From Naegleria gruberi (lineage: Eukaryota), in the NCBI GenBank assembly GCA_000004985.1, contig GG738850.1: a stretch of 64,000 nt of DNA; one strand, given 5' to 3'. Both the position numbers and the translations under genes were made by a program. Shown piece by piece: positions 6,309 to 52,550 of the stretch (its first letter is position 1; each line of letters begins with the position of its first letter). The notes beneath the pieces were generated by a model. It was not told the origin of the DNA. It was given only the letters and a program-made list of their open reading frames with translations, and made no database searches.

Positions 6309-6767
6309 TTATTGCTTTGGAGATTCGAGATGTTCAATAAGTGATTGAATTCCGCCACGATAGGCCGAGTGCACAATCTGAGTCAAATCCTCACTTCTCT
6401 CTGCAGGACAATTGAATCGAACACTCCACTCAAAGAAAGTTTGATTGGTGAGTGTAATTTCACTGACCTTGATGGTTGCTGTGTAGTTTTGCAGCTCAGC
6501 AAAGGCCCCACCAGCTTGCAATAGTTTGTAAGTAAAAGTGTGATTGATTTGATCAAGGGCTATTAATTCCTCCCTTGCTGGTGTTGAAACTCCTCGAATT
6601 TTGAGACAGCGAATGGAGCCAATGGTTTGTGGATTTACAGAATTCTCAATAGTGCTCTCTTCAACAACAGCTGACCATTTTGGGGAGCCATCGAATTGAC
6701 TAACGAGTGGCCACACAGTTGAGATGGAGGCTGGTAAGACACCTGATTCGTAGACTTGATAAGACAT
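6309..6767 (-). CDS. SRPBCC (Bet v1/START-like, polyketide-cyclase-like) small protein
   Basis: A 152-aa ORF with an ATG start. Length and pattern fit the Polyketide_cyc2/SRPBCC fold. Assigned by family resemblance only. Confidence 0.5.
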   Translation of the reverse strand: MSYQVYESGVLPASISTVWPLVSQFDGSPKWSAVVEESTIENSVNPQTIGSIRCLKIRGVSTPAREELIALDQINHTFTYKLLQAGGAFAELQNYTATIKVSEITLTNQTFFEWSVRFNCPAERSEDLTQIVHSAYRGGIQSLIEHLESPKQ

Positions 6768-6961: not shown

Positions 6962-9298
6962 TTAATTCTTTCTTCTCTTGTAAATTAATTCACTTCTCAT
7001 CAAATATTTAGTGCCACTCTTGAGAACTGAGCCATAGTGAAGAATATTGTGTGGGAAAATGATGCACAGACCTGGTTCTGGCTCAACGTGTCCCTTGATT
7101 TCAAATGGTGGTGCAGGTGGGAAGGTATGTGATTTGATAAATGTGGTTCTTCCCTCTTCATAATCACCATTGAGATAGAACATGAATGTGTAAAAACTAC
7201 GAGTATCACCATCGAGCTCAATACAACCATCATAGTGAGGAGCAAGGAAGTGTTGACCTGGTGTGTATTTGCAGAATCGCCATCTAGAATTGAGGAATGC
7301 CAAGTCCCAGGTATCTCCTGATTCTGGATCGACGTAAACTTGAGGAGCCATTGATTTTACTCTTTCGAATAGAATTTGTGCAGAAATCTTGTCTTCAACA
7401 ATGACTCTCTTATTAGATCTGTATTCCTTAGCATAACCATACAAATCCTCATAGCTTAATTTTTCTGTTTGCTCGATCAAGTGTTGACATTCTTCCTCAC
7501 TCAATAAATTATGAATCAGGTAACTGGTATTCTTGGTGAATTTGGTGCCAATTAATTTATCATCAAATATTCCCTCCAAGAATGTTACACATTGAATTGG
7601 TTTTCTCTCAGTGCATGGTTTGGCATGGTCAATGCTGAAATCTTTGAATATTTTCAGGTAGGCATGATTGGTGTGATCGTATTGCAAATCATCCGTTCCA
7701 AGTTCAAAATCTGAAGGATACTCCCATTCATATCTTGGACTAAATTTGACAAAAAAGATGGCAGAATCTGAGAGACCCAGCAAAAGAATTGACTGATCTG
7801 GAATCAACAACATGGAATTACATTGAGATCCACTACAATCCAACTCGACTGTTTCAGTTAAACTCAAAGAAGAACCACTCTTTCCAATGTAGAACAATCT
7901 CACTGTACAATCTCTGCATGAACAAATAAGCTTCTCTGGAGTGAGAACAATATTGGTGCATGAGCTTGGCAAGGATTCATTGTGTTGTAAAGAATGAATG
8001 CTCGATAATTTTCCATCCTCAAATCGTAATTTACAGGATATCACCTGTAATGTCTTGTCTTGGTAGGAAATGGAGATTATAAACTCTTCATCAGATCGTT
8101 GTGTTACCTCACAAGTTATCTTGACCCTTCCAGAATTGGATTGTTCCGCTATTAAATATTGTTTCCATGATTTGATATCTTCCATTGAATCTTCTTTACA
8201 ATAGCTCATTACCACTGAACCATTCATATCCACACTCAAGAGACATACCATTTCACCAAAATTCAAAACTCTCAAAGAATTATTAATTGGAGAAGTGTGC
8301 AAAGTTGACACTTTTCCTATCACTTCTCCATTCTCAATGTTGGAGATGCAAACAAATGAATCTAATCCACTCGTTGCTACCAACTTGCTACTCGATGTCA
8401 ATTTGACAATTTTTGCTATATTATAATTATGGAACTCGCTAATCGACTCTATTTGATGAATTCTTTCATACTTTTCATCAACCAATTTCCAAACATTCAA
8501 ATTATTGGAAGTTGAATTCACAACCCATTCAACATTGAAATGTTCAAAATCAGAAACCTTTGATTCAATACCAGATTTAGATTCATTCAATCCACTATGA
8601 ATGAAATATTTCACAACACCATCTGACGGATCAAAAACAATCAACGATGAATGAGACCCATCACTCTCATTACCACTCGAACATGACAAACACAAGTGTC
8701 TCTTTTCACATTGATCATTATGAGGAGAGATGGACATGACAACATCAGATTCTCCCACCACTTGCTGAGGTTCATAATCAAAAATCTTTAAAATCTTTCC
8801 CTCATCTCCACTATGAAAATCAATGGATTTCATTTGGAGAGTAGATCTCAAATCCCATTGACACAAACAAGCTTTCATATCACCAGAAAACAATGTTGGG
8901 ATGTTAATTGTTGTCTGCTTCTTCAATTTGGAGAAGCACATTGCTTGAACTGCTGACAAGTGTCCTTCCAGACATGTCAAATGATGTAAACCCTTCTTAT
9001 ATCTCTGCATTATTTGTAATTGTTGAATGAACAATCTCTTATAGCCCTTTTCATTGATAATCAAGTGAGAAGATTGCTTCAAAACTTGAGAATACTCCCT
9101 CTGACACAACTCCTTCCAAACCATCTCATCATTTCCCATGAATTTAGAGTAAATCTTCGGAGAGAGTAGGAAGAGAGAATTGATCCACTCCGTGGGCTCT
9201 ATCATGAGCATTAGCTCGGAGAGAATGGATGGTTCTTGTACCAATAGAGAAATCAAGTTCATAGTTGTTAGTTGAATTTGTGTTTTAAAATCTCTCAA
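6962..9298 (-). CDS. F-box-like / beta-propeller / C-terminal 2OG-Fe(II) oxygenase (prolyl-4-hydroxylase-like) fusion protein
   Basis: The ORF begins on TTG, and the first ATG is at 9262 ('MNLISLLVQEPSILSELMLMIEPTEWINSLFLLSPKIYSKFMGNDEMVW', F-box-like). The central roughly 450 aa are beta-strand-rich propeller-like repeats. The C-terminus carries the 2OG-oxygenase triad 'HYDG' (HxD), a distal 'ILHYG' His and 'KYLMRSEL' (RxS). Confidence 0.6.
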   Translation of the reverse strand: MRDFKTQIQLTTMNLISLLVQEPSILSELMLMIEPTEWINSLFLLSPKIYSKFMGNDEMVWKELCQREYSQVLKQSSHLIINEKGYKRLFIQQLQIMQRYKKGLHHLTCLEGHLSAVQAMCFSKLKKQTTINIPTLFSGDMKACLCQWDLRSTLQMKSIDFHSGDEGKILKIFDYEPQQVVGESDVVMSISPHNDQCEKRHLCLSCSSGNESDGSHSSLIVFDPSDGVVKYFIHSGLNESKSGIESKVSDFEHFNVEWVVNSTSNNLNVWKLVDEKYERIHQIESISEFHNYNIAKIVKLTSSSKLVATSGLDSFVCISNIENGEVIGKVSTLHTSPINNSLRVLNFGEMVCLLSVDMNGSVVMSYCKEDSMEDIKSWKQYLIAEQSNSGRVKITCEVTQRSDEEFIISISYQDKTLQVISCKLRFEDGKLSSIHSLQHNESLPSSCTNIVLTPEKLICSCRDCTVRLFYIGKSGSSLSLTETVELDCSGSQCNSMLLIPDQSILLLGLSDSAIFFVKFSPRYEWEYPSDFELGTDDLQYDHTNHAYLKIFKDFSIDHAKPCTERKPIQCVTFLEGIFDDKLIGTKFTKNTSYLIHNLLSEEECQHLIEQTEKLSYEDLYGYAKEYRSNKRVIVEDKISAQILFERVKSMAPQVYVDPESGDTWDLAFLNSRWRFCKYTPGQHFLAPHYDGCIELDGDTRSFYTFMFYLNGDYEEGRTTFIKSHTFPPAPPFEIKGHVEPEPGLCIIFPHNILHYGSVLKSGTKYLMRSELIYKRRKN

Positions 9299-11065: not shown

Positions 11066-12274
<1,209 letters not shown>

Positions 12275-13506: not shown

Positions 13507-16500
13507 TTACTTTTTTCTACTGTCCTGCATTTCCCACTCACTATCCATTGGATTTTCCTCCAAATCAACTTCTCCAATCTTGACCAATTTCTTGGCAAAC
13601 TTTGGATTTAAAGCAAAATTCTTATATTGCATTTCAGGTTTAGGTTTTTCAATTTTAGTTTCTGGTTTAAGGCAACCAATTAGAATAAAGATACAACAAG
13701 TGAACATTAGAATGACTATCAAAACTGCCATGACAACAAGAGGGATCCATAGAATATCATTACCAGAGAATGTTTCAGGAAGAATAATTGGTTTAGCTTC
13801 TTCCACAATAATGATCTCTCCCCTTATTTCTAAAATACCTATCATTTGATTATCAAAACATGTGCAAACGCCTGTTGAGTTATCAGCCAGAGAAAATGAA
13901 CATGAAGGTGCATTAGTAATCTTTCCATCACTTAAAGTCTTGCATTCATATTTGTAAAAAACGTTTGAATTATTGTAGCCAACTTGTTCAGTAAGTGGAA
14001 TGAAAAACATGATAGGGGCTGTTAAGTTGTTCATATTTACCACTTGATTACTCGAGTTGACTATTGAAAGGAAAACAGTTGTTTTTGATTTGATGCTTGT
14101 TTTTGACTTGATAACTCGTTTAGGTTCTACAACCACAAACGAATCTGAATTGTATATTCCTTGATTATTAATGGAATATAATGAATAACTCCATGGTTTC
14201 ACGCTTGAGAGGGCAAGTTTTGGTAAAGTGACTTTTACACTCTGTGATGTAATATACATTTCTGAAAGCTCATCAGCAAAATGTCTATTTGAAGTAATGG
14301 TTGAATAACCAACATTGCTACTAGATGGCTCACTCCCTAATATCATATTTCTTTTGGATAATTCTGAAATGTAAGTTGAAAATTTCAAAAACTCAGAATC
14401 ATATTTCAAGTTGAATTCTAATTTGTTCACATTTTCGAACAATACTGAAATAAATCCTGACAGCAACTTTTCAACTCCATCTAAGAGTAAAATGTTCTTA
14501 TTTGAATAAGCTTCGCTCAAACATTTTTCAGAAGCATGAATCAAAAGCGACAATCTACCCTCATCTAGGGAGCTTACACTTTTAGAAAGTGAAAATGCTG
14601 AATAAATAAAGCTGGTGACAGATTCAGTAGTTAATGGATTAAGAGATTTTTCCCTTCCAACTTCTTCATTAGCCAAATTGGTTATAAAATCAAATTTAAG
14701 CTCCTCTATCAATGCATCAACATTTGAAGTGGAGGTAATTCTTTTTGTTGTTGAGTTTGACAATAGTTGGTCCTTAATCATTGTAACAATTGAGGTGATG
14801 GTTGCCGTGTTAAATACATTTTGAGAAAGAGTTTCTTCTTGCTTTTCCTGGATAGATCTTCTTGTCCAAGTCGAAATGAGGGATTTCAATTCTGTAATTT
14901 CACTAACAGTTGGTGGAATAATGGCGACACTGGTTTTGACAATCATATCAGTGTCGGTATCATGATCTACAATCTTAATATAGAGATCTAAGGTTCCAGA
15001 ATTTGATACTGGTAAATATTGAGACATTGATTTGTTTGATGATTGAGCAGAGCTGGAGGCTATTGGGATATTCAAACCTGAATAATTATCAATAAAACCA
15101 TATTCAAAATCAAAGGAGGGTTCTGTTTCACAATTTGGACATCTAAAAGAAAATTCTGTGCTAAGAGCATAACCAAGAGAAGGGGTTACTGAACATTCAC
15201 ACAGCTTTGGGAATTTCACAACCCTGAATTGATAAGACAAAGTTGAAGATAACCAACTAGATTCATCATCCACTCTTAGAGTGAGAATATAAACGCCTTC
15301 ATCCATATATTGAGTATCTATAATAATAGAGTTTGAGATAGACAATGGATTTCTCATTTTCTTTAGCAATGCTTGATCTATTTTAGTCCCATTAATCCTC
15401 CAAATTCTTTGAACGCGATTGATATCTTCAACTCCTTGAATTCCAACTTGAAGATTTAAAATCTCACCCTTTTTTACACTCTTTGGGTTCACAGAGCTGT
15501 AGAGAAGATTAATGACTGGTGGAATGCCAAACTTTGAATCTAAAGGGAAATTAATTTGTAAAGAGGAGGAGACATTCCTAAAACCTTTCACCACATTAAG
15601 GTTTATATCTATAGGAGCATTCCAAAAGCTTTGATTGTCTGGCTTGAAAATGGTTACATAGTTTGGTTCAGAATTGAAATTTAACAGAGAAGAACAAGTG
15701 TCCCCGTTCATAAAACAAGACCATAACATCTGTTCCTTCTCTGTTGTGTGGTCATTGTCAGTGAGGGAATATGCAAGAACGTATTTTGTCGAGGAGGCTT
15801 CTACTGCGAATAATTGCAAATCCAACTCTGAAATTCTAGTTTGAATGTTAAAGGTTGATGTAAATTTAGATGTTAAATACTCATTCATCGAGTTAAATTC
15901 AATTGAAAATGAATAGAGAGAATCCATCAGTGTAGAATATCTTGAAATAACCAAGTTGTTATAGTTATTTACAGAGAATGTTAGAGGAGGCCCATCTACC
16001 TTGGCATAGCTTGTAGTATAGGTAAAGTTAGAGGATACACAATTTGGATTGATTGTCTTTTTGAATACAATCGGTAAATCACTCACACTAACAACTTTGG
16101 AACCAATGAATACAGGAGGTTGTGGATCCGAGTTCATATCAAATGTGAAGGTAGTTTCACTTTCTGTTTTGAATAAGGTACTTTTCACTTTCAGTTTGAA
16201 AATGTGAACACCTCTGGAGTAGTCATTGAATTTGAAGAAGACAGTCTTAGCACCATTATTGTTGGCTTTCTGGAGGATAGTGTTAATCTTTGAATCTAAA
16301 GAGATAACACTCCACTCAAAAATGACAGGCTTTACATCTCTACTATAACTCTTCGATCCATCCAGAATGAAATCATCACATAATGAGTGTTTCTCTATTC
16401 TCACAGTAGGTGCCAATGGGGATGATGGAGGACTAACATTCATTTCAACAAAGGAGCCATTTGAATTCTCTCCTAGTACTTCCACATTGATATATAGGAT

Positions 16501-19500
16501 GCCCCCTAGTCTTAATGTAAAATCTTCACCAAGATTAATATAAAAGGTGCTATTTTTCCATTCACAAGACGGGAGAGTTCCTAAAAGCTCATTATTCAGA
16601 ACCACTTTTTTACAATCCACATAGTAAAGAGAAGGAAAAAATCCATTAGTTTCTAGGGAAATCTTATCGCCATTGTCTGAGAATTTCAAACCTGATTTAA
16701 AGCTCAACTGGCATTTGGCACCAAAATAGTTTTCCAAACAAGTCTCGCATTTAGTTCCTTTCCAAAATCCATTTTTCTGGTTCGAATAACATATACATGT
16801 TCCATTCATTTGGCATTCACCATGATAGGAACAAGATGAAGGTGAACTACATGGTGTTGTTTTACATTCTTCTCCAAAATAAGGATGCATGCATTGATCA
16901 CATTTATCTCCACTCCAGTATCCCTTAATATCATCTTGATAACAGGAGCAAGAATTCAGTTGTTTACATTCTCCATGACGACTGCAGACACTAGTATTTG
17001 AATACTCAATACCAAAGCAATAAAAGTTTTTACATTCTTTACCATAGAAACCATCTCTGCATTCACAAATATCAGGAGATTTACAATAGCCTTGACTTGA
17101 ACAAACATTATAACTCTGTGAAGATTTTCCATAACAGTTGAACAGATTGCATTCAGCTCCATAAAACCCTTCTTTGCAAGAACAATTATTTGGAGAAGTA
17201 CATATTCCATTTGATGAGCATACATTTTCACTGGCGAAATCTATGCTAAAGCAGGAATAATTGCTGCACGTTAATCCTTCATATCCATTTTCGCATTTGC
17301 ACAAGTTTGGGGCAATACATTCTCCATTTGAATGACAAGTTCCTGGATCATTATTTGAAATATTAAAACAATCAAATTGTTCACATTCATCACCGTAGTG
17401 ACCTATGTTGCAGGAACAATTGTTAGGACCTGCACAGGACCCGTTTGAAGAGCAAGCTATGGAATCATTCCTTTCAATCCCAAAACAGGAGAAGTCAGAG
17501 CAATCAACACCAAAGTAACCACTAGTTGTACAATTACATACATCCCTTGAGACGCAATCACCATTACCTGAACAAACATTGGTATTATTATTCAAAACTC
17601 CAAAGCAGTAGAAATTTTCACACCTATCTCCAAAGAAGTCAGAGAAACAATCACACTCATTTGGTTTGATGCACACTCCATTTCCTGAGCAGACCTCCTG
17701 GCTTGTATTCACAACCCCAAAACATGACGCAAATTCACAACTATCACCACTGAAACCATCAAAACAGGAGCAATTATTGTAATCAAAACATTGCCCTAAT
17801 GAAGAACATGCTAAGGAATGGTTTGAGGGATATCCAAAACATGTAAATTCATCACATTTTTCTGAAAGATATCCTTCAAAGCATAAACACTCATCACTAG
17901 AGACACATTTACCATTCCCACTGCAAACATTTGAGCTATTAGAAGAGTAACCATAACAATCGAAAAGAGAACATTCCAGTCCATGATATCCATCATCGCA
18001 TGAACAGTTATTAGGTCCTAAACACATTCCGTTTGAGGAACATACAGATGTCTCTGTTTCATTCTTTCCAAAGCATTCAAAGTGTTCACAATTATTGCCA
18101 TAAAAACCTTCCAAACATGAACAGTTACCTGGGGATACGCATAGACCATTAGATGAACATACAGCTGTTGAATTGTTTTCCAATGAGAAACAGGTAAACT
18201 TTTCACATTGGTTTCCATAATAACCTTCATAACAAGTGCAGTTGTTTGGTGAGGAACAAAGACCATTTCTTGAACAGGAATCCACTGTTGAACTCTCAAT
18301 CCCAAAACAATCATAAAAAGTACACTCTAAACCATAATATCCACTGAAACATGTGCAATTATTTGGGGAATGGCAATCACCATTTGAAGAGCAAACTGAA
18401 CAGTCCGTTTCATTCTTTCCAAAACATTGATGGTACTGACAATTATTTCCAAAATATCCTTCTTCACAAGTGCAGTTATTTGGAGAGTTACACTCACCTC
18501 TCGAAGTACAGACTAAGGTTGAATTGTGTTCAATGTTAAAACATTGATACATGTTGCACTCTATTCCATAGTATCCTTGATGACAGGAACAATTATTATA
18601 AGAAGAACAACAGCCATTATACGAGCATACTTCCTCTCTTGAATGCTCAATACCAAAACAATCGAATAATGAGCAATCCGTTCCATAGTATACTCCTTCA
18701 CAGGAACAATTATTTGGACTTGAGCAAATACCATTCCCAAAGCAAACACTGGAGTTATCTTTCCTTATTCCATGACAATTAAAATATTGACACATATCTC
18801 CATAGTAATTGGGACTACATGAACAATTATTGACAGTCACACACAACCCTCTCCCACTGCAGACTCCCGAAAAGTTAGCAGGAATATTGAAGCATTTAGG
18901 TATTTCACAACTACTTCCTATCCAAGAATCATTGCATGAGCAGGAATTAGGAGAGGAGCAATTACCATGATTGCTGCACACTCCGCTCTCTCCATTGGTT
19001 TTACCAAAACAAACAGGAGAACTACAATCTTTTCCTGTCCACATTGTAAAATCTGAACATGTACAATTATTAGGAGACACGCATGTTCCGTGTCCAGAGC
19101 AAGTTGCTGGGAGGTCTTTTTCAATTGAGTAACAATAGTAATTTTGGCAAAGGTTTCCACTATAGCCATTTGAGCAATCACAATGGTCAATGTAAGAGCA
19201 AACTCCAAACGAAGAGCAAACAGTTGAATTATTCCATAAAACTCCACCACAGCTGGTATGGGTCAATTTTCTAACTCTAAAATTCGAAGTATCTGCAATG
19301 AAAACTTCATTAGAAATATTTGAATACGAAATTGAGTAAACTGAATCAATTTGAGCAGACAGAGAATCTGTTCCATCACCCACACTCCCTGAATTCCTTG
19401 CAGATCCAGCAATTGTTCGTATAATTCCATTTGAATAAACCTTCCTTATTACATAATTATCACTGTCAGAAATAAGCATTTCACCTGCTGATGTAAAGGC

Positions 19501-20400
19501 TATTGATGTTGGACTGCTTAATTGAGCTTGTTTAGCTTGACCTCCATCTCCTAAATATCCACTCACACCTGTACCAACAACTGTGATAATCTTGTTATCT
19601 AATCCAACCTTTCTAATAACATTATTGCCAGTGTCAGCAATAAACAACTCGCCCGTTGTTGGTGATATGGCAACATCGTTAGGGCTGTTGAGTTTAGCAC
19701 TTGTGGCAACACCATTATCTCCACCATATCCTAACAGAGAACAAGTGCCTGCAGCTACACTCACAACCGTTCCACTAATTTTACCAATACAATGATAGGT
19801 ATAATCTGAAAAGTATAAGACTCCACTCGAAGAAACTGCCAATCCCAATACTTGACCAATAGTAGAACTGGTTGCAGTTCCTTCAGTCAAAGCTCCTTTT
19901 GTTCCTTTTCCAATAACTGTGGAAATAATTTGATTCGTTGATATCTTTCTAATTCTATAATTTAGAGAATCACCCAAATACAAAGTCCCGTCTCCACTAT
20001 AAAAAGCCAAAGCTTGAGGTTTGTTGAGCTTGGCAGATGTCGCTACACCATTATCACCAAAATACCCTCCTGAAGATCCAGTTCCTGCTATTGTTTTGAT
20101 AATTCCATTCGATACTTTCCTTATTCTGTGATATGTTTTATCGGCAATGTACAAATCTCCATTCGATCCTACTTCAATAGCATCTACATAACCAATTGAA
20201 GCATGACTAGGGGATACACCATCTCCAGAATTTCCCTCATTACCATCCCCAACATAGGAGGTGATAGTAAATCGCTCGATTTGATCTGTGACTACTACAC
20301 CATTAAGGCTATTCAATATGATTAATATTAATATAACAATATACATCACTCGGCTATTACGGATTATTGTACAACCATCCGATCCTTTTGACTTCATCAT
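13507..20400 (-). CDS. giant type-I membrane protein: signal peptide, NHL-repeat beta-propeller, ~30 tenascin-type EGF-like repeats, large Ser/Thr-rich ectodomain, single TM, short cytoplasmic tail (teneurin/attractin-like)
   Basis: A single 6.9-kb ORF of 2297 aa. The signal peptide begins at the third Met ('MYIVILILIILNSLNG'). Six NHL-like repeats follow ('YIADKTYHRIRKV', 'YFSDYTYHCIGKI', 'FIADTGNNVIRKV', 'LISDSDNYVIRKV', 'FIADTSNFRVRKL'). About 30 'CxxxxxCSGNGxCxxxxxCxCxxGYxGxxC' EGF repeats run through roughly 17.2-19.3 kb, and a TM helix 'ILWIPLVVMAVLIVILMFTCCIFILIGCL' lies about 55 aa from the C-terminus. Antisense ORFs within the gene are spurious. Confidence 0.75.
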   Translation of the reverse strand: MMKSKGSDGCTIIRNSRVMYIVILILIILNSLNGVVVTDQIERFTITSYVGDGNEGNSGDGVSPSHASIGYVDAIEVGSNGDLYIADKTYHRIRKVSNGIIKTIAGTGSSGGYFGDNGVATSAKLNKPQALAFYSGDGTLYLGDSLNYRIRKISTNQIISTVIGKGTKGALTEGTATSSTIGQVLGLAVSSSGVLYFSDYTYHCIGKISGTVVSVAAGTCSLLGYGGDNGVATSAKLNSPNDVAISPTTGELFIADTGNNVIRKVGLDNKIITVVGTGVSGYLGDGGQAKQAQLSSPTSIAFTSAGEMLISDSDNYVIRKVYSNGIIRTIAGSARNSGSVGDGTDSLSAQIDSVYSISYSNISNEVFIADTSNFRVRKLTHTSCGGVLWNNSTVCSSFGVCSYIDHCDCSNGYSGNLCQNYYCYSIEKDLPATCSGHGTCVSPNNCTCSDFTMWTGKDCSSPVCFGKTNGESGVCSNHGNCSSPNSCSCNDSWIGSSCEIPKCFNIPANFSGVCSGRGLCVTVNNCSCSPNYYGDMCQYFNCHGIRKDNSSVCFGNGICSSPNNCSCEGVYYGTDCSLFDCFGIEHSREEVCSYNGCCSSYNNCSCHQGYYGIECNMYQCFNIEHNSTLVCTSRGECNSPNNCTCEEGYFGNNCQYHQCFGKNETDCSVCSSNGDCHSPNNCTCFSGYYGLECTFYDCFGIESSTVDSCSRNGLCSSPNNCTCYEGYYGNQCEKFTCFSLENNSTAVCSSNGLCVSPGNCSCLEGFYGNNCEHFECFGKNETETSVCSSNGMCLGPNNCSCDDGYHGLECSLFDCYGYSSNSSNVCSGNGKCVSSDECLCFEGYLSEKCDEFTCFGYPSNHSLACSSLGQCFDYNNCSCFDGFSGDSCEFASCFGVVNTSQEVCSGNGVCIKPNECDCFSDFFGDRCENFYCFGVLNNNTNVCSGNGDCVSRDVCNCTTSGYFGVDCSDFSCFGIERNDSIACSSNGSCAGPNNCSCNIGHYGDECEQFDCFNISNNDPGTCHSNGECIAPNLCKCENGYEGLTCSNYSCFSIDFASENVCSSNGICTSPNNCSCKEGFYGAECNLFNCYGKSSQSYNVCSSQGYCKSPDICECRDGFYGKECKNFYCFGIEYSNTSVCSRHGECKQLNSCSCYQDDIKGYWSGDKCDQCMHPYFGEECKTTPCSSPSSCSYHGECQMNGTCICYSNQKNGFWKGTKCETCLENYFGAKCQLSFKSGLKFSDNGDKISLETNGFFPSLYYVDCKKVVLNNELLGTLPSCEWKNSTFYINLGEDFTLRLGGILYINVEVLGENSNGSFVEMNVSPPSSPLAPTVRIEKHSLCDDFILDGSKSYSRDVKPVIFEWSVISLDSKINTILQKANNNGAKTVFFKFNDYSRGVHIFKLKVKSTLFKTESETTFTFDMNSDPQPPVFIGSKVVSVSDLPIVFKKTINPNCVSSNFTYTTSYAKVDGPPLTFSVNNYNNLVISRYSTLMDSLYSFSIEFNSMNEYLTSKFTSTFNIQTRISELDLQLFAVEASSTKYVLAYSLTDNDHTTEKEQMLWSCFMNGDTCSSLLNFNSEPNYVTIFKPDNQSFWNAPIDINLNVVKGFRNVSSSLQINFPLDSKFGIPPVINLLYSSVNPKSVKKGEILNLQVGIQGVEDINRVQRIWRINGTKIDQALLKKMRNPLSISNSIIIDTQYMDEGVYILTLRVDDESSWLSSTLSYQFRVVKFPKLCECSVTPSLGYALSTEFSFRCPNCETEPSFDFEYGFIDNYSGLNIPIASSSAQSSNKSMSQYLPVSNSGTLDLYIKIVDHDTDTDMIVKTSVAIIPPTVSEITELKSLISTWTRRSIQEKQEETLSQNVFNTATITSIVTMIKDQLLSNSTTKRITSTSNVDALIEELKFDFITNLANEEVGREKSLNPLTTESVTSFIYSAFSLSKSVSSLDEGRLSLLIHASEKCLSEAYSNKNILLLDGVEKLLSGFISVLFENVNKLEFNLKYDSEFLKFSTYISELSKRNMILGSEPSSSNVGYSTITSNRHFADELSEMYITSQSVKVTLPKLALSSVKPWSYSLYSINNQGIYNSDSFVVVEPKRVIKSKTSIKSKTTVFLSIVNSSNQVVNMNNLTAPIMFFIPLTEQVGYNNSNVFYKYECKTLSDGKITNAPSCSFSLADNSTGVCTCFDNQMIGILEIRGEIIIVEEAKPIILPETFSGNDILWIPLVVMAVLIVILMFTCCIFILIGCLKPETKIEKPKPEMQYKNFALNPKFAKKLVKIGEVDLEENPMDSEWEMQDSRKK

Positions 20401-49262: not shown

Positions 49263-52200
49263 ATGAGAAGTAGAGAGTTGAGTAGAGAAGAATGTTTTTC
49301 CATCCTCCAATTTGAACCTTCCTTGTTTTCTCTAATGACCGGAAGGCTGATCTGTAAAAATTTCTATGAGGCTTGTGTATTGTTGCAGCTCAGAATTAAA
49401 TTTAAAACTCGGAAGGAAATTTTAGCCTTTGCCAAGTTGTTGGATCGAAGAATATTGAAAAAAGTGGTAGAAATCAGTGCCAAGAATTGTGATCTTGAAG
49501 ATGATGATATGCAAATCATCGGATCAATGTTTGATAATTTACAAATTTTAAATTTAGAGAATAATTTATTGACTTTGAATGGATTGCACTGTTTGGAGGG
49601 CAGTGGAATTGTTAATTCTCTTAGGGTAATCAATATTAGAGGAAATCAAGGAAGTTTAGATATTGATGTATTTAAAAATTTGAAAATTCTTGAATGTGAA
49701 AAAGTAGATAAACCAAAAAAGATTCATCAGTTGGAAGCTTTAACTACCAGTAGCATTTCAAATCAAATTGTTGAAAGTTTACCCCATTTAAAACATATTA
49801 CAATAACTAGAGGTAAAATTGGTGCTTGGGACTCTCTATCTAAACTTTCTAATTTGGAAACTCTTTCATTGCAATGCGCTATTGGGAATAATGTTTCTAT
49901 TTTCAAAAATTTGAAAAAGTTGTTAATTCAACATGTCTCTCTCACCATTGAGACTGTTGAAACTATTGCTAAGAATCTAGATCACGTAGAATCTTTAAAA
50001 TTATTGTATATTGCAATACAAGGAGATGATATTATTACAACATTATGTAATTTGAAAGTAACTGAGAGAGTTAAAACACTCCATTTGGTTGCTAATAATA
50101 TTTCTGATGTTGGTGTTGATTTTCTAATTTCAAATTCAAACCTTGAAAAATTAACATCACTAGATCTCTCTTTTAATAAGATAACTGAAAATGGTATCAG
50201 ATCTATAACTTGTACTTCAAAACTTACAAATTTAAGAAAGCTGTCACTTAAAAGGTCGAAGGGAAGTTTATACTTGGGTCACTTTATGAACAGTCATTTA
50301 AAAAATTTGACTTCATTGAATATTAAATCAGAAGATCATGCTTTCGAAGGTATAGATGACTTTTTACTTTCCCCATTTGCAAAGAAACTTCAAAAGTGTA
50401 GAATTTTCAGCAAAGATATTCCAAAATGGAGATTCTCAAGAAAAATCAACATTCTAAAAGAGAATGAGGCCAGTGTTGACACTCTCCTACAATTTATGCT
50501 AGACAGGCCATCAATAGAAAATTCAATTGGTATTAATCATGAACTTCCTGATACTATTAGAAATGTGAATGATCATTTTAGAGTTCTACTGAATTATATT
50601 GATAATTTATTACCTAGCCATTTAGGATTCCATCCTTCTGGGCGTATTATGATAGTGATTGAAGCCGAAATATGTTATGGCACTACTATTATTGAAAAAT
50701 GTTCTGAAACATTCTCATGTGATTATTCCATGTCGATCAATTGCAATCATTACTTCAACTTTGCCAAACGTTTGGTAGAATTACCATTAGAGAGTGTCTT
50801 GAAAATCAAAATTTTCGTCTTGAAACTCTCATCAATGGGAAAGAAACAAGTAGCACATTCTATAACGCCAATATTCAATAGGAATGGAAAACATATTAAT
50901 GGCATCATTCAAAATGCTATGCATAGCAGTTTTACACCAAAGGAATTTAAGATGATGACAACCTTTGATAAGTATGATGATTGTGTTGGTCCTTTTGAGG
51001 GAGATTTAGCTGAATTACATGAACTCTCAAACAGTAAAGAACTACCAAGCAATTTTGAAGAATTATTAACAAAGAAAGTGCTGACTGATGAAGAAAAAAA
51101 CATGATTTGGAGTTTAAGAAAAATTATCCCAAAAACTCATCTAGGTTTGAGAGTTTTGATGGAAAGCTTTCCCTTTATGAATCAGCATGCCCTCGAATAT
51201 ATGAGAAACCAAATCAGAGAACTTGTCAATACCTTCTCAAATCCATGCCAATATTTGGAATTATTAGGAGAACCATTTATTGATACTGAAATCAGAGATT
51301 TAGCATATAAGGCCATTAATCAAATGACAGATAGCCAATTATTCAATTCTATGAACATTATTATAGAATTATTGGCTTGTGAAATGGAATTAGACAATCC
51401 ACTCTCACAAATTCTCTTGAATCGAGGATTAAATAATGTGGATATAGGAAGACATTTATTCTGGTGCATTCAGGGCAACCTGCACAATTCCAGCATTAGA
51501 GGCAAACTAGCTTGGTTAGCAGTACAATTTTTGAACAATATTACCCATGAAAGACTGTTGGAATTTTACAATCAGTGTCTCTATATTTATCAAATAGAAG
51601 AAATCGATTTGAATATCAAAGAAACACCAAGAATTAACTTGTCGACACATACAGAATTATTGGTCCAAAGAGTATCCGAGTTGGCATTCCCTACACCATT
51701 CATTCTCCCTTACCCACCTTACAGCTCAGTTCAACGTATCATTGCTGAAAAGACAAGCCTTACTGACTCAAGAAATAGAGCAGTGATAATCACATACGAA
51801 TCGAATGGGAAAACTGGTCAACTTCTAATGATCAGCCGTGAAAATAAGGTTGATAGTTACATGTCCTCAACACTAAGAATTCTTTCAGATATGTGGAATA
51901 GCACCTACCCAAATGAAGAGAGAACTTTTGTGCAAGGTTCGGTTATCCCTATTGATAATGATATTTGCATTTATGAAAAGGCCTCCCAATCCCTTTATGA
52001 AATTCAGGGCAGTAATTTGTCAAGAATTTCTGATCCAAGCTCCTGGATAGAAATTGGAAACAATCAATTTCCAAATTTTGAAAGAAATCTTTTACGATCA
52101 TATGCGTTTCACGCTATTTTTGCAATGACTTTAAAGATTAGAGATTTGCACAATGACAATATTGGAATCAATGAAGAAGGATTTCTCAGCTTATATGATA

Positions 52201-52550
52201 AGAATTCTATCCTAGCACCTCCCAAGTTTGGTTTCCTTTCAAGAAGAAAAGGATTCTTTGGTGGTATGGGATTACTCAAACTTTTGAAATCCGATGAATT
52301 CAGAGACCATGCTGTAAAAAATTTATTCCTGCTTTCTCAAAATTCTCGATTACTTTATGCACTAATGTGCGAAATGGTTCGGTTAGATTTGAGAAATGAC
52401 ATTACGTATCAAATAATAGTCAACCAATTCAAGGAAATGTTAGATGATAACGATACTTTTAAAAAGTGTCAGCATGCAGTTGATAAGTTTATTAAGGAAG
52501 GAACAAATCTACTTAACACCGATTTTATTCACATGCTAAGACATGATTGA
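49263..52550 (+). CDS. leucine-rich-repeat protein with C-terminal PI3K/PI4K-like catalytic domain (catalytic motifs degenerate - probable pseudokinase)
   Basis: A 1095-aa ORF. The N-terminal half is RNI-type LRRs ('[16 protein letters not shown]', '[16 protein letters not shown]'). The C-terminal '[35 protein letters not shown]...[14 protein letters not shown]' aligns to PI3K '[21 protein letters not shown]...HIDFG...LFALMRAAGL'. DRH is replaced by DLH and DFG by YDK. Confidence 0.55.
   Translation: [1095 protein letters not shown]

Follow-up and report, generated by a model that had tools for sequence, protein, structure and literature searches.

A Naegleria gruberi reading frame that joins an F-box-like segment, a WD40 propeller and a prolyl-4-hydroxylase-like oxygenase

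Does Naegleria gruberi encode, in one polypeptide, an F-box, a WD40 beta-propeller and an oxygenase of the prolyl 4-hydroxylase (P4H) type, and what might such a protein do? The question is raised by an open reading frame (ORF) at positions 6962..9298, minus strand, of a 64,000-nucleotide stretch of contig GG738850.1 (this whole stretch is referred to as the window), which presents a gene-dense setting of approximately 34% G+C with long uninterrupted ORFs. The original prediction, made from the letters of this DNA, described a fusion of an F-box-like N-terminus, a propeller-like middle and a C-terminal 2-oxoglutarate (2OG)/Fe(II) oxygenase. All sequence strings quoted in that prediction are present in the translation, and the fusion is confirmed: the ORF runs for 778 codons with zero stop codons, and its layout is kept in orthologues. 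We consider it rather probable that the product is a three-module protein acting as a Skp1-docked, propeller-targeted protein hydroxylase with a catalytically competent P4H-like domain.

Reading frame, start codon and orthologues

The first in-frame ATG of the ORF is codon 13 (window 9262), in agreement with the original remark that no ATG precedes residue 13. Initiation at this codon gives a non-secretory protein of three modules and 766 amino acids (aa). The coding sequence and its regions, with residues numbered from this ATG, are as follows.

6962..9262, minus strand: proposed complete coding sequence, from the ATG at 9262 to a TAA at 6962-6964; 766 aa plus stop.
9095..9235, minus strand: divergent F-box-like segment, aa 10-56 (EPSILSELMLMIEPTEWINSLFLLSPKIYSKFMGNDEMVWKELCQRE), identified from orthologue profiles, Pfam searches of the orthologues and hhalign.
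8987..9094, minus strand: helical linker from the F-box-like segment to the propeller, aa 57-92, with the conserved motif KRLFIQQ..RY..G and modelled helices at aa 58-90.
7745..8986, minus strand: eight-bladed WD40-type beta-propeller, aa 93-506, as modelled.
7532..7744, minus strand: inter-domain segment, aa 507-577, with the motif SPRYEW.YP...YD...HAYLK.
6965..7531, minus strand: P4H-like 2OG/Fe(II) oxygenase domain, aa 578-766, identified from Pfam, profiles and conserved ligands.

A public protein, P0001 ('2OG-Fe(II) oxygenase family protein', 725 aa), is 100% identical to the ORF and begins at the third in-frame Met (window ~9139; MGNDEMVWKE, aa 42), which lies 41 codons past the first ATG. 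It omits 41 conserved residues (window 9140-9262, minus strand) that include most of the F-box-like motif, so that in the public N. gruberi model the start is placed too far 3' and the F-box is lost. The block 5' of the annotated start is conserved at the protein level between N. gruberi and N. lovaniensis, as P[TS][ED]W[IL].SLFLLS.KIY..F, with seven synonymous-only and seven non-synonymous differences in the 19 codons upstream of that start. This conservation argues that the segment is translated, and it is under purifying selection for the protein it encodes. In Willaertia and N. lovaniensis the protein begins 9-22 residues ahead of the N-terminal motif, and therefore the ATG at 9262 suffices and is the most likely translation start. 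The upstream exon that had been thought possible is rejected, as the first in-frame ATG already gives an N-terminus like those of the orthologues in length and sequence.

The search for the same architecture in other genomes, suggested at the outset, was successful. The Willaertia magna protein P0004 (776 aa) aligns in a single stretch over aa 27-765 (E 1.6e-106), and P0005, P0006 and P0007, from three other eukaryotic contigs, share the layout of the N. gruberi protein. Each of these four proteins is a single ORF, and the G+C content of their contigs differs, with a range of 29-49% for those of P0005, P0006 and P0007. The F-box/WD40/oxygenase layout is common to several protist lineages. On the contig of P0006 (L004:985-2100), the adjacent upstream gene encodes a HECT-domain (ubiquitin ligase) protein, which may be a coincidence. 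No N. fowleri orthologue was returned by either protein search, these being searches of proteins only, with no eukaryotic genome collection searched.

The N. lovaniensis annotation (locus L001:5342-7749, PYSW02000032.1) divides the orthologue between two genes, P0011 (204 aa) and P0002 (582 aa), which are collinear with the N. gruberi ORF. Together with the public N. gruberi model that lacks the first 41 residues, this would fit a long ORF that is an annotation or assembly artefact joining two genes, with the N-terminal region coming from a different gene. We find such an artefact hardly credible, given the lack of a stop across all 778 codons and the identical collinear architecture in Willaertia and three unrelated contigs. 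Moreover, all that divides P0011 from P0002 is a shift of the frame by one base, within an A-rich run near L001:5905-5925, beyond which homology resumes in the other frame. Because of this continuing homology, an assembly indel is the probable cause of the N. lovaniensis split, a pseudogene being less likely. The F-box missing from the N. gruberi model and the split N. lovaniensis gene may together explain why the architecture went unnoticed.

The propeller-like middle of the original description is modelled as repeated four-stranded blades that close into a propeller of the WD40 type. A whole-protein phmmer search of the PDB gave nothing beyond marginal WD40 matches, and when the full-length alignment was used to look for homologues, generic WD40 proteins dominated the output and nothing useful emerged. 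The inter-domain segment that follows is conserved in every same-architecture protein and in some stand-alone relatives. Approximately 40 residues upstream of the oxygenase core (aa ~528-552; window 7600-7680, minus strand) we see the motif YD...HxY(L/M)KPP...(W/F), which occurs in all F-box/WD40 members and in some of the stand-alone relatives (P0012, P0024). We considered the Pro-Pro of 'YD..HAYLKPP' as an obligatory auto-substrate and find this unlikely, as N. gruberi has LKIF where others have LKPP.

The oxygenase domain and its relatives

The C-terminal oxygenase matches Pfam PF13640 (2OG-FeII_Oxy_3) at 27.8 bits when the whole protein is searched and at 29.6 bits when the C-terminal fragment is used, the cutoff being 27. 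The residues below are those most relevant to catalysis or to the family; conservation is expressed as the fraction across 149 aligned domains of the oxygenase family.

7229..7237, minus strand: H676-Y-D678, the HxD of the Fe(II) facial triad, each 99% conserved.
7037..7039, minus strand: H742, the distal Fe(II)-binding histidine, 99% conserved.
7007..7009, minus strand: K752 (His742+10), the probable 2OG C5-carboxylate-binding lysine, 99% conserved and aligned to a Lys of Bacillus anthracis P4H.
6995..6997, minus strand: R756 of 'RSEL', a family-specific arginine, 97% conserved.

With a Pfam score above the cutoff and a near-invariant HxD...H triad, the C-terminal 2OG-Fe(II) oxygenase of the original prediction stands. 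Within its proposed motif set, the HxD 'HYDG' and the distal His are retained, and the 'RxS' arginine is set aside as the 2OG ligand in favour of K752. This lysine lines up with the one in the 'GEKWIA' of the B. anthracis enzyme, and is probably the 2OG-binding residue; its His+10 spacing is that of the 2OG-binding lysine in collagen P4H (His483/Lys493). Besides H676, D678, H742 and K752, approximately 30 further family-invariant positions are kept in the N. gruberi domain.

A profile of 30 oxygenase sequences was compared with solved structures. The top matches were B. anthracis P4H (1.9e-13) and the PBCV-1 viral collagen P4H (8e-8), followed by Chlamydomonas P4H-1 (1.5e-7), Pseudomonas PPHD (8e-4) and human P4H-TM (1e-3), with P3H1 and LH3 (~1e-2) and Dictyostelium PhyA (6t8m, 0.025) further down the ranking. 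Nearly all of the top structural neighbours are protein prolyl hydroxylases, and the double-stranded beta-helix fold of the domain is closest to that group. There is no JmjC family among the Pfam matches of the protein at E<=10. Taken with the PF13640 score and the conserved H676/D678/H742/K752, this ranking identifies the domain as P4H-like, specifically collagen-P4H-like, and apparently active. The nearest catalytic domain is not that of PhyA or EGLN, and a PhyA-like identity is rejected.

An inactive pseudo-enzyme, kept as a mere binding module on an FBXW-type receptor, would be a different reading of the same domain, and one that we regard as extremely unlikely. Nothing specific favours it, other than Pfam scores barely above the cutoff, whereas all of the Fe(II)/2OG ligands and the approximately 30 other family-invariant positions are retained. 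In addition, conservation along the protein is highest in the oxygenase, with 62-74% identity to Willaertia and N. lovaniensis compared to 31-46% for the propeller.

An exhaustive HMMER search gave 3436 relatives (1395 at E<=1e-10), nearly all of which match just aa ~578-765, at 35-50% identity. The named members of the clade are called just 'hypothetical', 'prolyl hydroxylase family' or 'PKHD-type hydroxylase', and the family forms a distinct, uncharacterised clade, set apart by the invariant motifs YRSNxR, NxxxRxxxY and KYxxRS. A proline-rich insertion in a loop of the oxygenase domain (aa ~715-726; window ~7085-7120, minus strand) reads TFPPAPPFEIKG in N. gruberi and GPPQPPFSEVG in N. lovaniensis; it is limited to these two Naegleria proteins and is absent in Willaertia and other relatives.

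The partners of the oxygenase in other proteins are informative. Among 39 other long relatives, 20 pair an N-terminal oxygenase with a C-terminal WD40 propeller, including the N. gruberi paralogue XP_002675901.1 and the Myxococcota protein MFO0724149.1. In P0066 and P0088, from metagenome/Logan contigs, the oxygenase is followed by a strong F-box (42 and 30 bits, respectively) and then by an actin-like domain. P0066, P0088, XP_002675901.1 and MFO0724149.1 belong to the same oxygenase family (35-40% identity) and use the same partner domains as the N. gruberi protein, but they carry the oxygenase at the N-terminus, in reversed order, and none has all three modules. As F-box and WD40 domains recur with the oxygenase in different orders, we argue for a functional link between this hydroxylase family, propeller targeting and Skp1. 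The recurrent pairing also offers a lead to the function of an uncharacterised family of more than 1000 members. N. gruberi itself has at least two oxygenase-domain paralogues, namely P0224 (XP_002675901.1; 568 aa, with an N-terminal oxygenase, a C-terminal WD40 propeller and no F-box) and P0219 (partial). In a transcript of the euglenid Ploeotia vitrea (P0033), two NADAR domains (PF08719, E 2.5e-49) are fused to the same oxygenase family.

The F-box-like segment

The N-terminal module is best seen through its homologues. The N-terminus of P0005 matches Pfam PF12937 (F-box-like) at 24.6 bits, against a cutoff of 24.3, while that of P0004 scores 19.5 bits with PF00646 (F-box), below the cutoff of 20.5. 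P0007 gives a Pfam F-box match at E 0.012, and the P0006 N-terminus has no Pfam match. A hidden Markov model of the four non-Naegleria orthologue N-termini finds the N. gruberi N-terminus among 694 ORFs at 39.3 bits (E 2.7e-11). When a profile of all six N-termini was compared with 177,635 PDB sequences, F-box proteins accounted for nine of the 15 matches at E<10 and were aligned at their F-boxes; they include FBXO3 (0.0098), an FBXW-like mouse protein (0.012), FBXW21, FBXO31 and FBXW7. With a profile of the four non-Naegleria N-termini, F-box proteins make up 11 of the 14 PDB matches, including beta-TrCP1 and FBXW11. Finally, hhalign of the six-sequence profile against three Pfam-certified F-boxes that were found by other routes (P0066, P0088 and P0159) gave a P value of 0.0012, in a register where LP..E.L..IL and LWK line up with the independent F-boxes.

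The linker (aa 57-92) is conserved in all six orthologues, and the alignment with Fbw7 spans the F-box and the linker up to the first WD 'GH'. Compared with propeller-only matches, the structural overlap of the model with Cdc4 and Fbw7 covers a further ~40-90 residues, in a model comparison that does not give residue ranges. We conclude that the F-box of the orthologue family is genuine, though divergent, and that an Fbw7-like linker follows it.

A number of results weigh against this assignment. The N-terminal 95 aa of N. gruberi give no F-box match in Pfam even at E<=10; their sole match, Gcn1_N, was rejected as spurious. The canonical Leu-Pro is missing in all six orthologues. A two-sequence Naegleria profile searched against the PDB returned NatA/TPR-type noise and no F-box protein, and F-box proteins appeared among the PDB matches only once distant orthologues had joined the profile. 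Single E-values against F-box proteins in the PDB are marginal (0.01-1.5), and the hhalign probability against the independent F-boxes is just 19%. In the AlphaFold model, aa 1-60 have a low predicted local distance difference test score (pLDDT, 47-64), and the helices at aa 11-20, 23-33 and 35-42 are modelled only at this level. The F-box originally proposed is thus upheld by way of its homologues, by the P0005 score and the profile match to N. gruberi, and not by the N. gruberi sequence alone.

The missing Pfam match, the failure of the Naegleria-only profile, the lost Leu-Pro motif and the low N-terminal pLDDT would also fit a propeller-targeted hydroxylase with no link to the Skp1-cullin-F-box (SCF) ligase, in which the N-terminal helices would be what is left of an F-box, degenerate or turned to another use and no longer binding Skp1. 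The WD40 domain would then recruit substrate to the oxygenase, in an arrangement like that of the oxygenase-WD40 relatives from bacteria and N. gruberi. Oxygenase and WD40 without an F-box is indeed the commoner arrangement in the family (the 20 of 39 long relatives that include the Myxococcota protein), and the bacterial relatives indicate that a propeller-oxygenase pair can work without SCF. We judge a remnant of this kind to be possible, though unlikely. The N-terminal segment is under purifying selection and is conserved in distant orthologues, some of which pass or approach Pfam F-box thresholds; the structural overlap with Cdc4 and Fbw7 reaches past the propeller; and a separate fusion of oxygenase and F-box exists in P0066 and P0088.

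Known systems, possible function and neighbouring genes

The F-box, linker and propeller layout of Cdc4/Fbw7, which are SCF substrate receptors, is matched by the first two modules of the N. gruberi protein. The latter differs in its very divergent F-box, with neither a Leu-Pro nor a Pfam match of its own, and adds a C-terminal extension of ~260 residues with the P4H-like oxygenase. Proteins combining an F-box with a 2OG oxygenase are known only with JmjC domains and no propeller, these being Dictyostelium JcdI/Fbxo13 and human KDM2A/KDM2B (FBXL11/FBXL10), the latter likewise F-box proteins with a JmjC-type 2OG/Fe(II) dioxygenase domain. Their partner domains are not a WD40 propeller, and in place of JmjC the N. 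gruberi protein has a P4H-like double-stranded beta-helix. Collagen-type P4Hs (PBCV-1 vCPH, Chlamydomonas P4H-1, B. anthracis P4H and human P4H-TM) are, in contrast, stand-alone secretory or membrane enzymes with no F-box or propeller. With PhyA, the Skp1 prolyl 4-hydroxylase, and with PHD/EGLN enzymes, the protein has a cytoplasmic protein prolyl hydroxylase fold in common; PhyA acts on Skp1, the partner of F-box proteins. The searchable literature yielded no account of an F-box/WD40/P4H-like protein, and nothing relevant on DDB_G0285501 or on Naegleria Skp1-modification genes. Public databases already list the gene, under a 2OG oxygenase annotation alone and in a form that lacks the F-box.

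The best experimental precedent is JcdI, whose F-box binds Skp1 directly and whose JmjC domain is an active 2OG dioxygenase; it is an O2-dependent enzyme that influences O2-dependent development, and its F-box is dispensable for the O2 effect (PMC9485057). In the Skp1-docked hydroxylase that we favour, the F-box would dock the protein on Skp1, whether within an SCF ligase or, as for JcdI, within a Skp1 complex other than SCF, while the WD40 propeller would bind a protein partner. The C-terminal domain would use O2 and 2OG to hydroxylate a residue on that partner or on a neighbouring protein; proline is the most probable target, because nearly all of the top structural neighbours are protein prolyl hydroxylases. 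One scaffold would in this way serve both hydroxylation and Skp1/SCF-dependent control. An oxygenase may carry an F-box without its substrate being ubiquitylated, and since the JcdI F-box is dispensable for the O2 effect, we do not assume ubiquitylation to be the output. The original reading of an SCF-associated or propeller-recruited hydroxylase is partly supported, in its domains and layout; its hint at hydroxylases of the PhyA kind is not borne out by the oxygenase domain.

The F-box may instead dock the enzyme on Skp1 for the reason that Skp1, or another SCF subunit, is the substrate, which would make the protein a functional analogue of PhyA. That PhyA hydroxylates Skp1 in the cytoplasm is established for Dictyostelium (PMC9485057) and Toxoplasma (PMC6437050), and the original prediction noted such enzymes for protists in general. 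The F-box-like segment would put the catalytic domain near Skp1, and this oxygenase family has been fused to an F-box twice. However, the catalytic domain is not PhyA-like and a large propeller is present, and we see this option as very unlikely.

In PHD-VHL oxygen sensing, prolyl hydroxylation is coupled to recognition by the substrate receptor of a cullin-RING ligase. A self-contained, oxygen-dependent degradation module can be imagined along these lines, in which the oxygenase writes hydroxyproline on a partner held or recognised by the propeller, and the F-box delivers this partner to SCF for ubiquitylation. The likeness is one of functional analogy only, as PHD and VHL are separate proteins and the receptor is of the BC-box type, whereas in N. 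gruberi a single polypeptide is involved and the coupling is hypothetical. We think such a module quite unlikely; if true, it would place PHD-plus-VHL logic in one polypeptide, with an independent origin in Heterolobosea and other protists. For the Skp1-docked hydroxylase more broadly, an FBXW-type receptor with a prolyl-hydroxylase-like domain would, if true, represent a second, independent wiring of an O2-consuming hydroxylase to Skp1/SCF, the Dictyostelium JcdI case being already tied to oxygen sensing through Skp1. The architecture is well supported and conserved and, judged on sequence, the oxygen-sensing and proteolysis angle is suggestive, making the N. gruberi protein a candidate for oxygen-regulated proteolysis in Naegleria and relatives.

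Other genes were also noted in the window. Directly downstream of the oxygenase gene is a 152-aa SRPBCC/polyketide-cyclase-like gene (6309-6767, minus strand). A 182-aa ORF at 11726-12274 (plus strand) matches positions 48-218 of a papain-family cysteine protease profile and, given this partial match, is probably a single exon of a gene with introns. At 21879-24809 (plus strand), 12 kb from the oxygenase gene and probably unrelated to it, is a 976-aa ORF with a VIT domain at its N-terminus and a TPR-like region; in Dictyostelium, a cytoplasmic vWFA/VIT protein is reported to act with a WD40 F-box protein (PMC10539598). The remaining large genes are a 2297-aa teneurin-like protein with NHL, many EGF and REJ domains (13507-20400, minus strand), a 1095-aa protein with a PI3K accessory domain (49263-52550, plus strand) and a 2300-aa DOCK-family guanine nucleotide exchange factor with DOCK-C2 and DHR-2 lobes A-C (57093-63995, plus strand).

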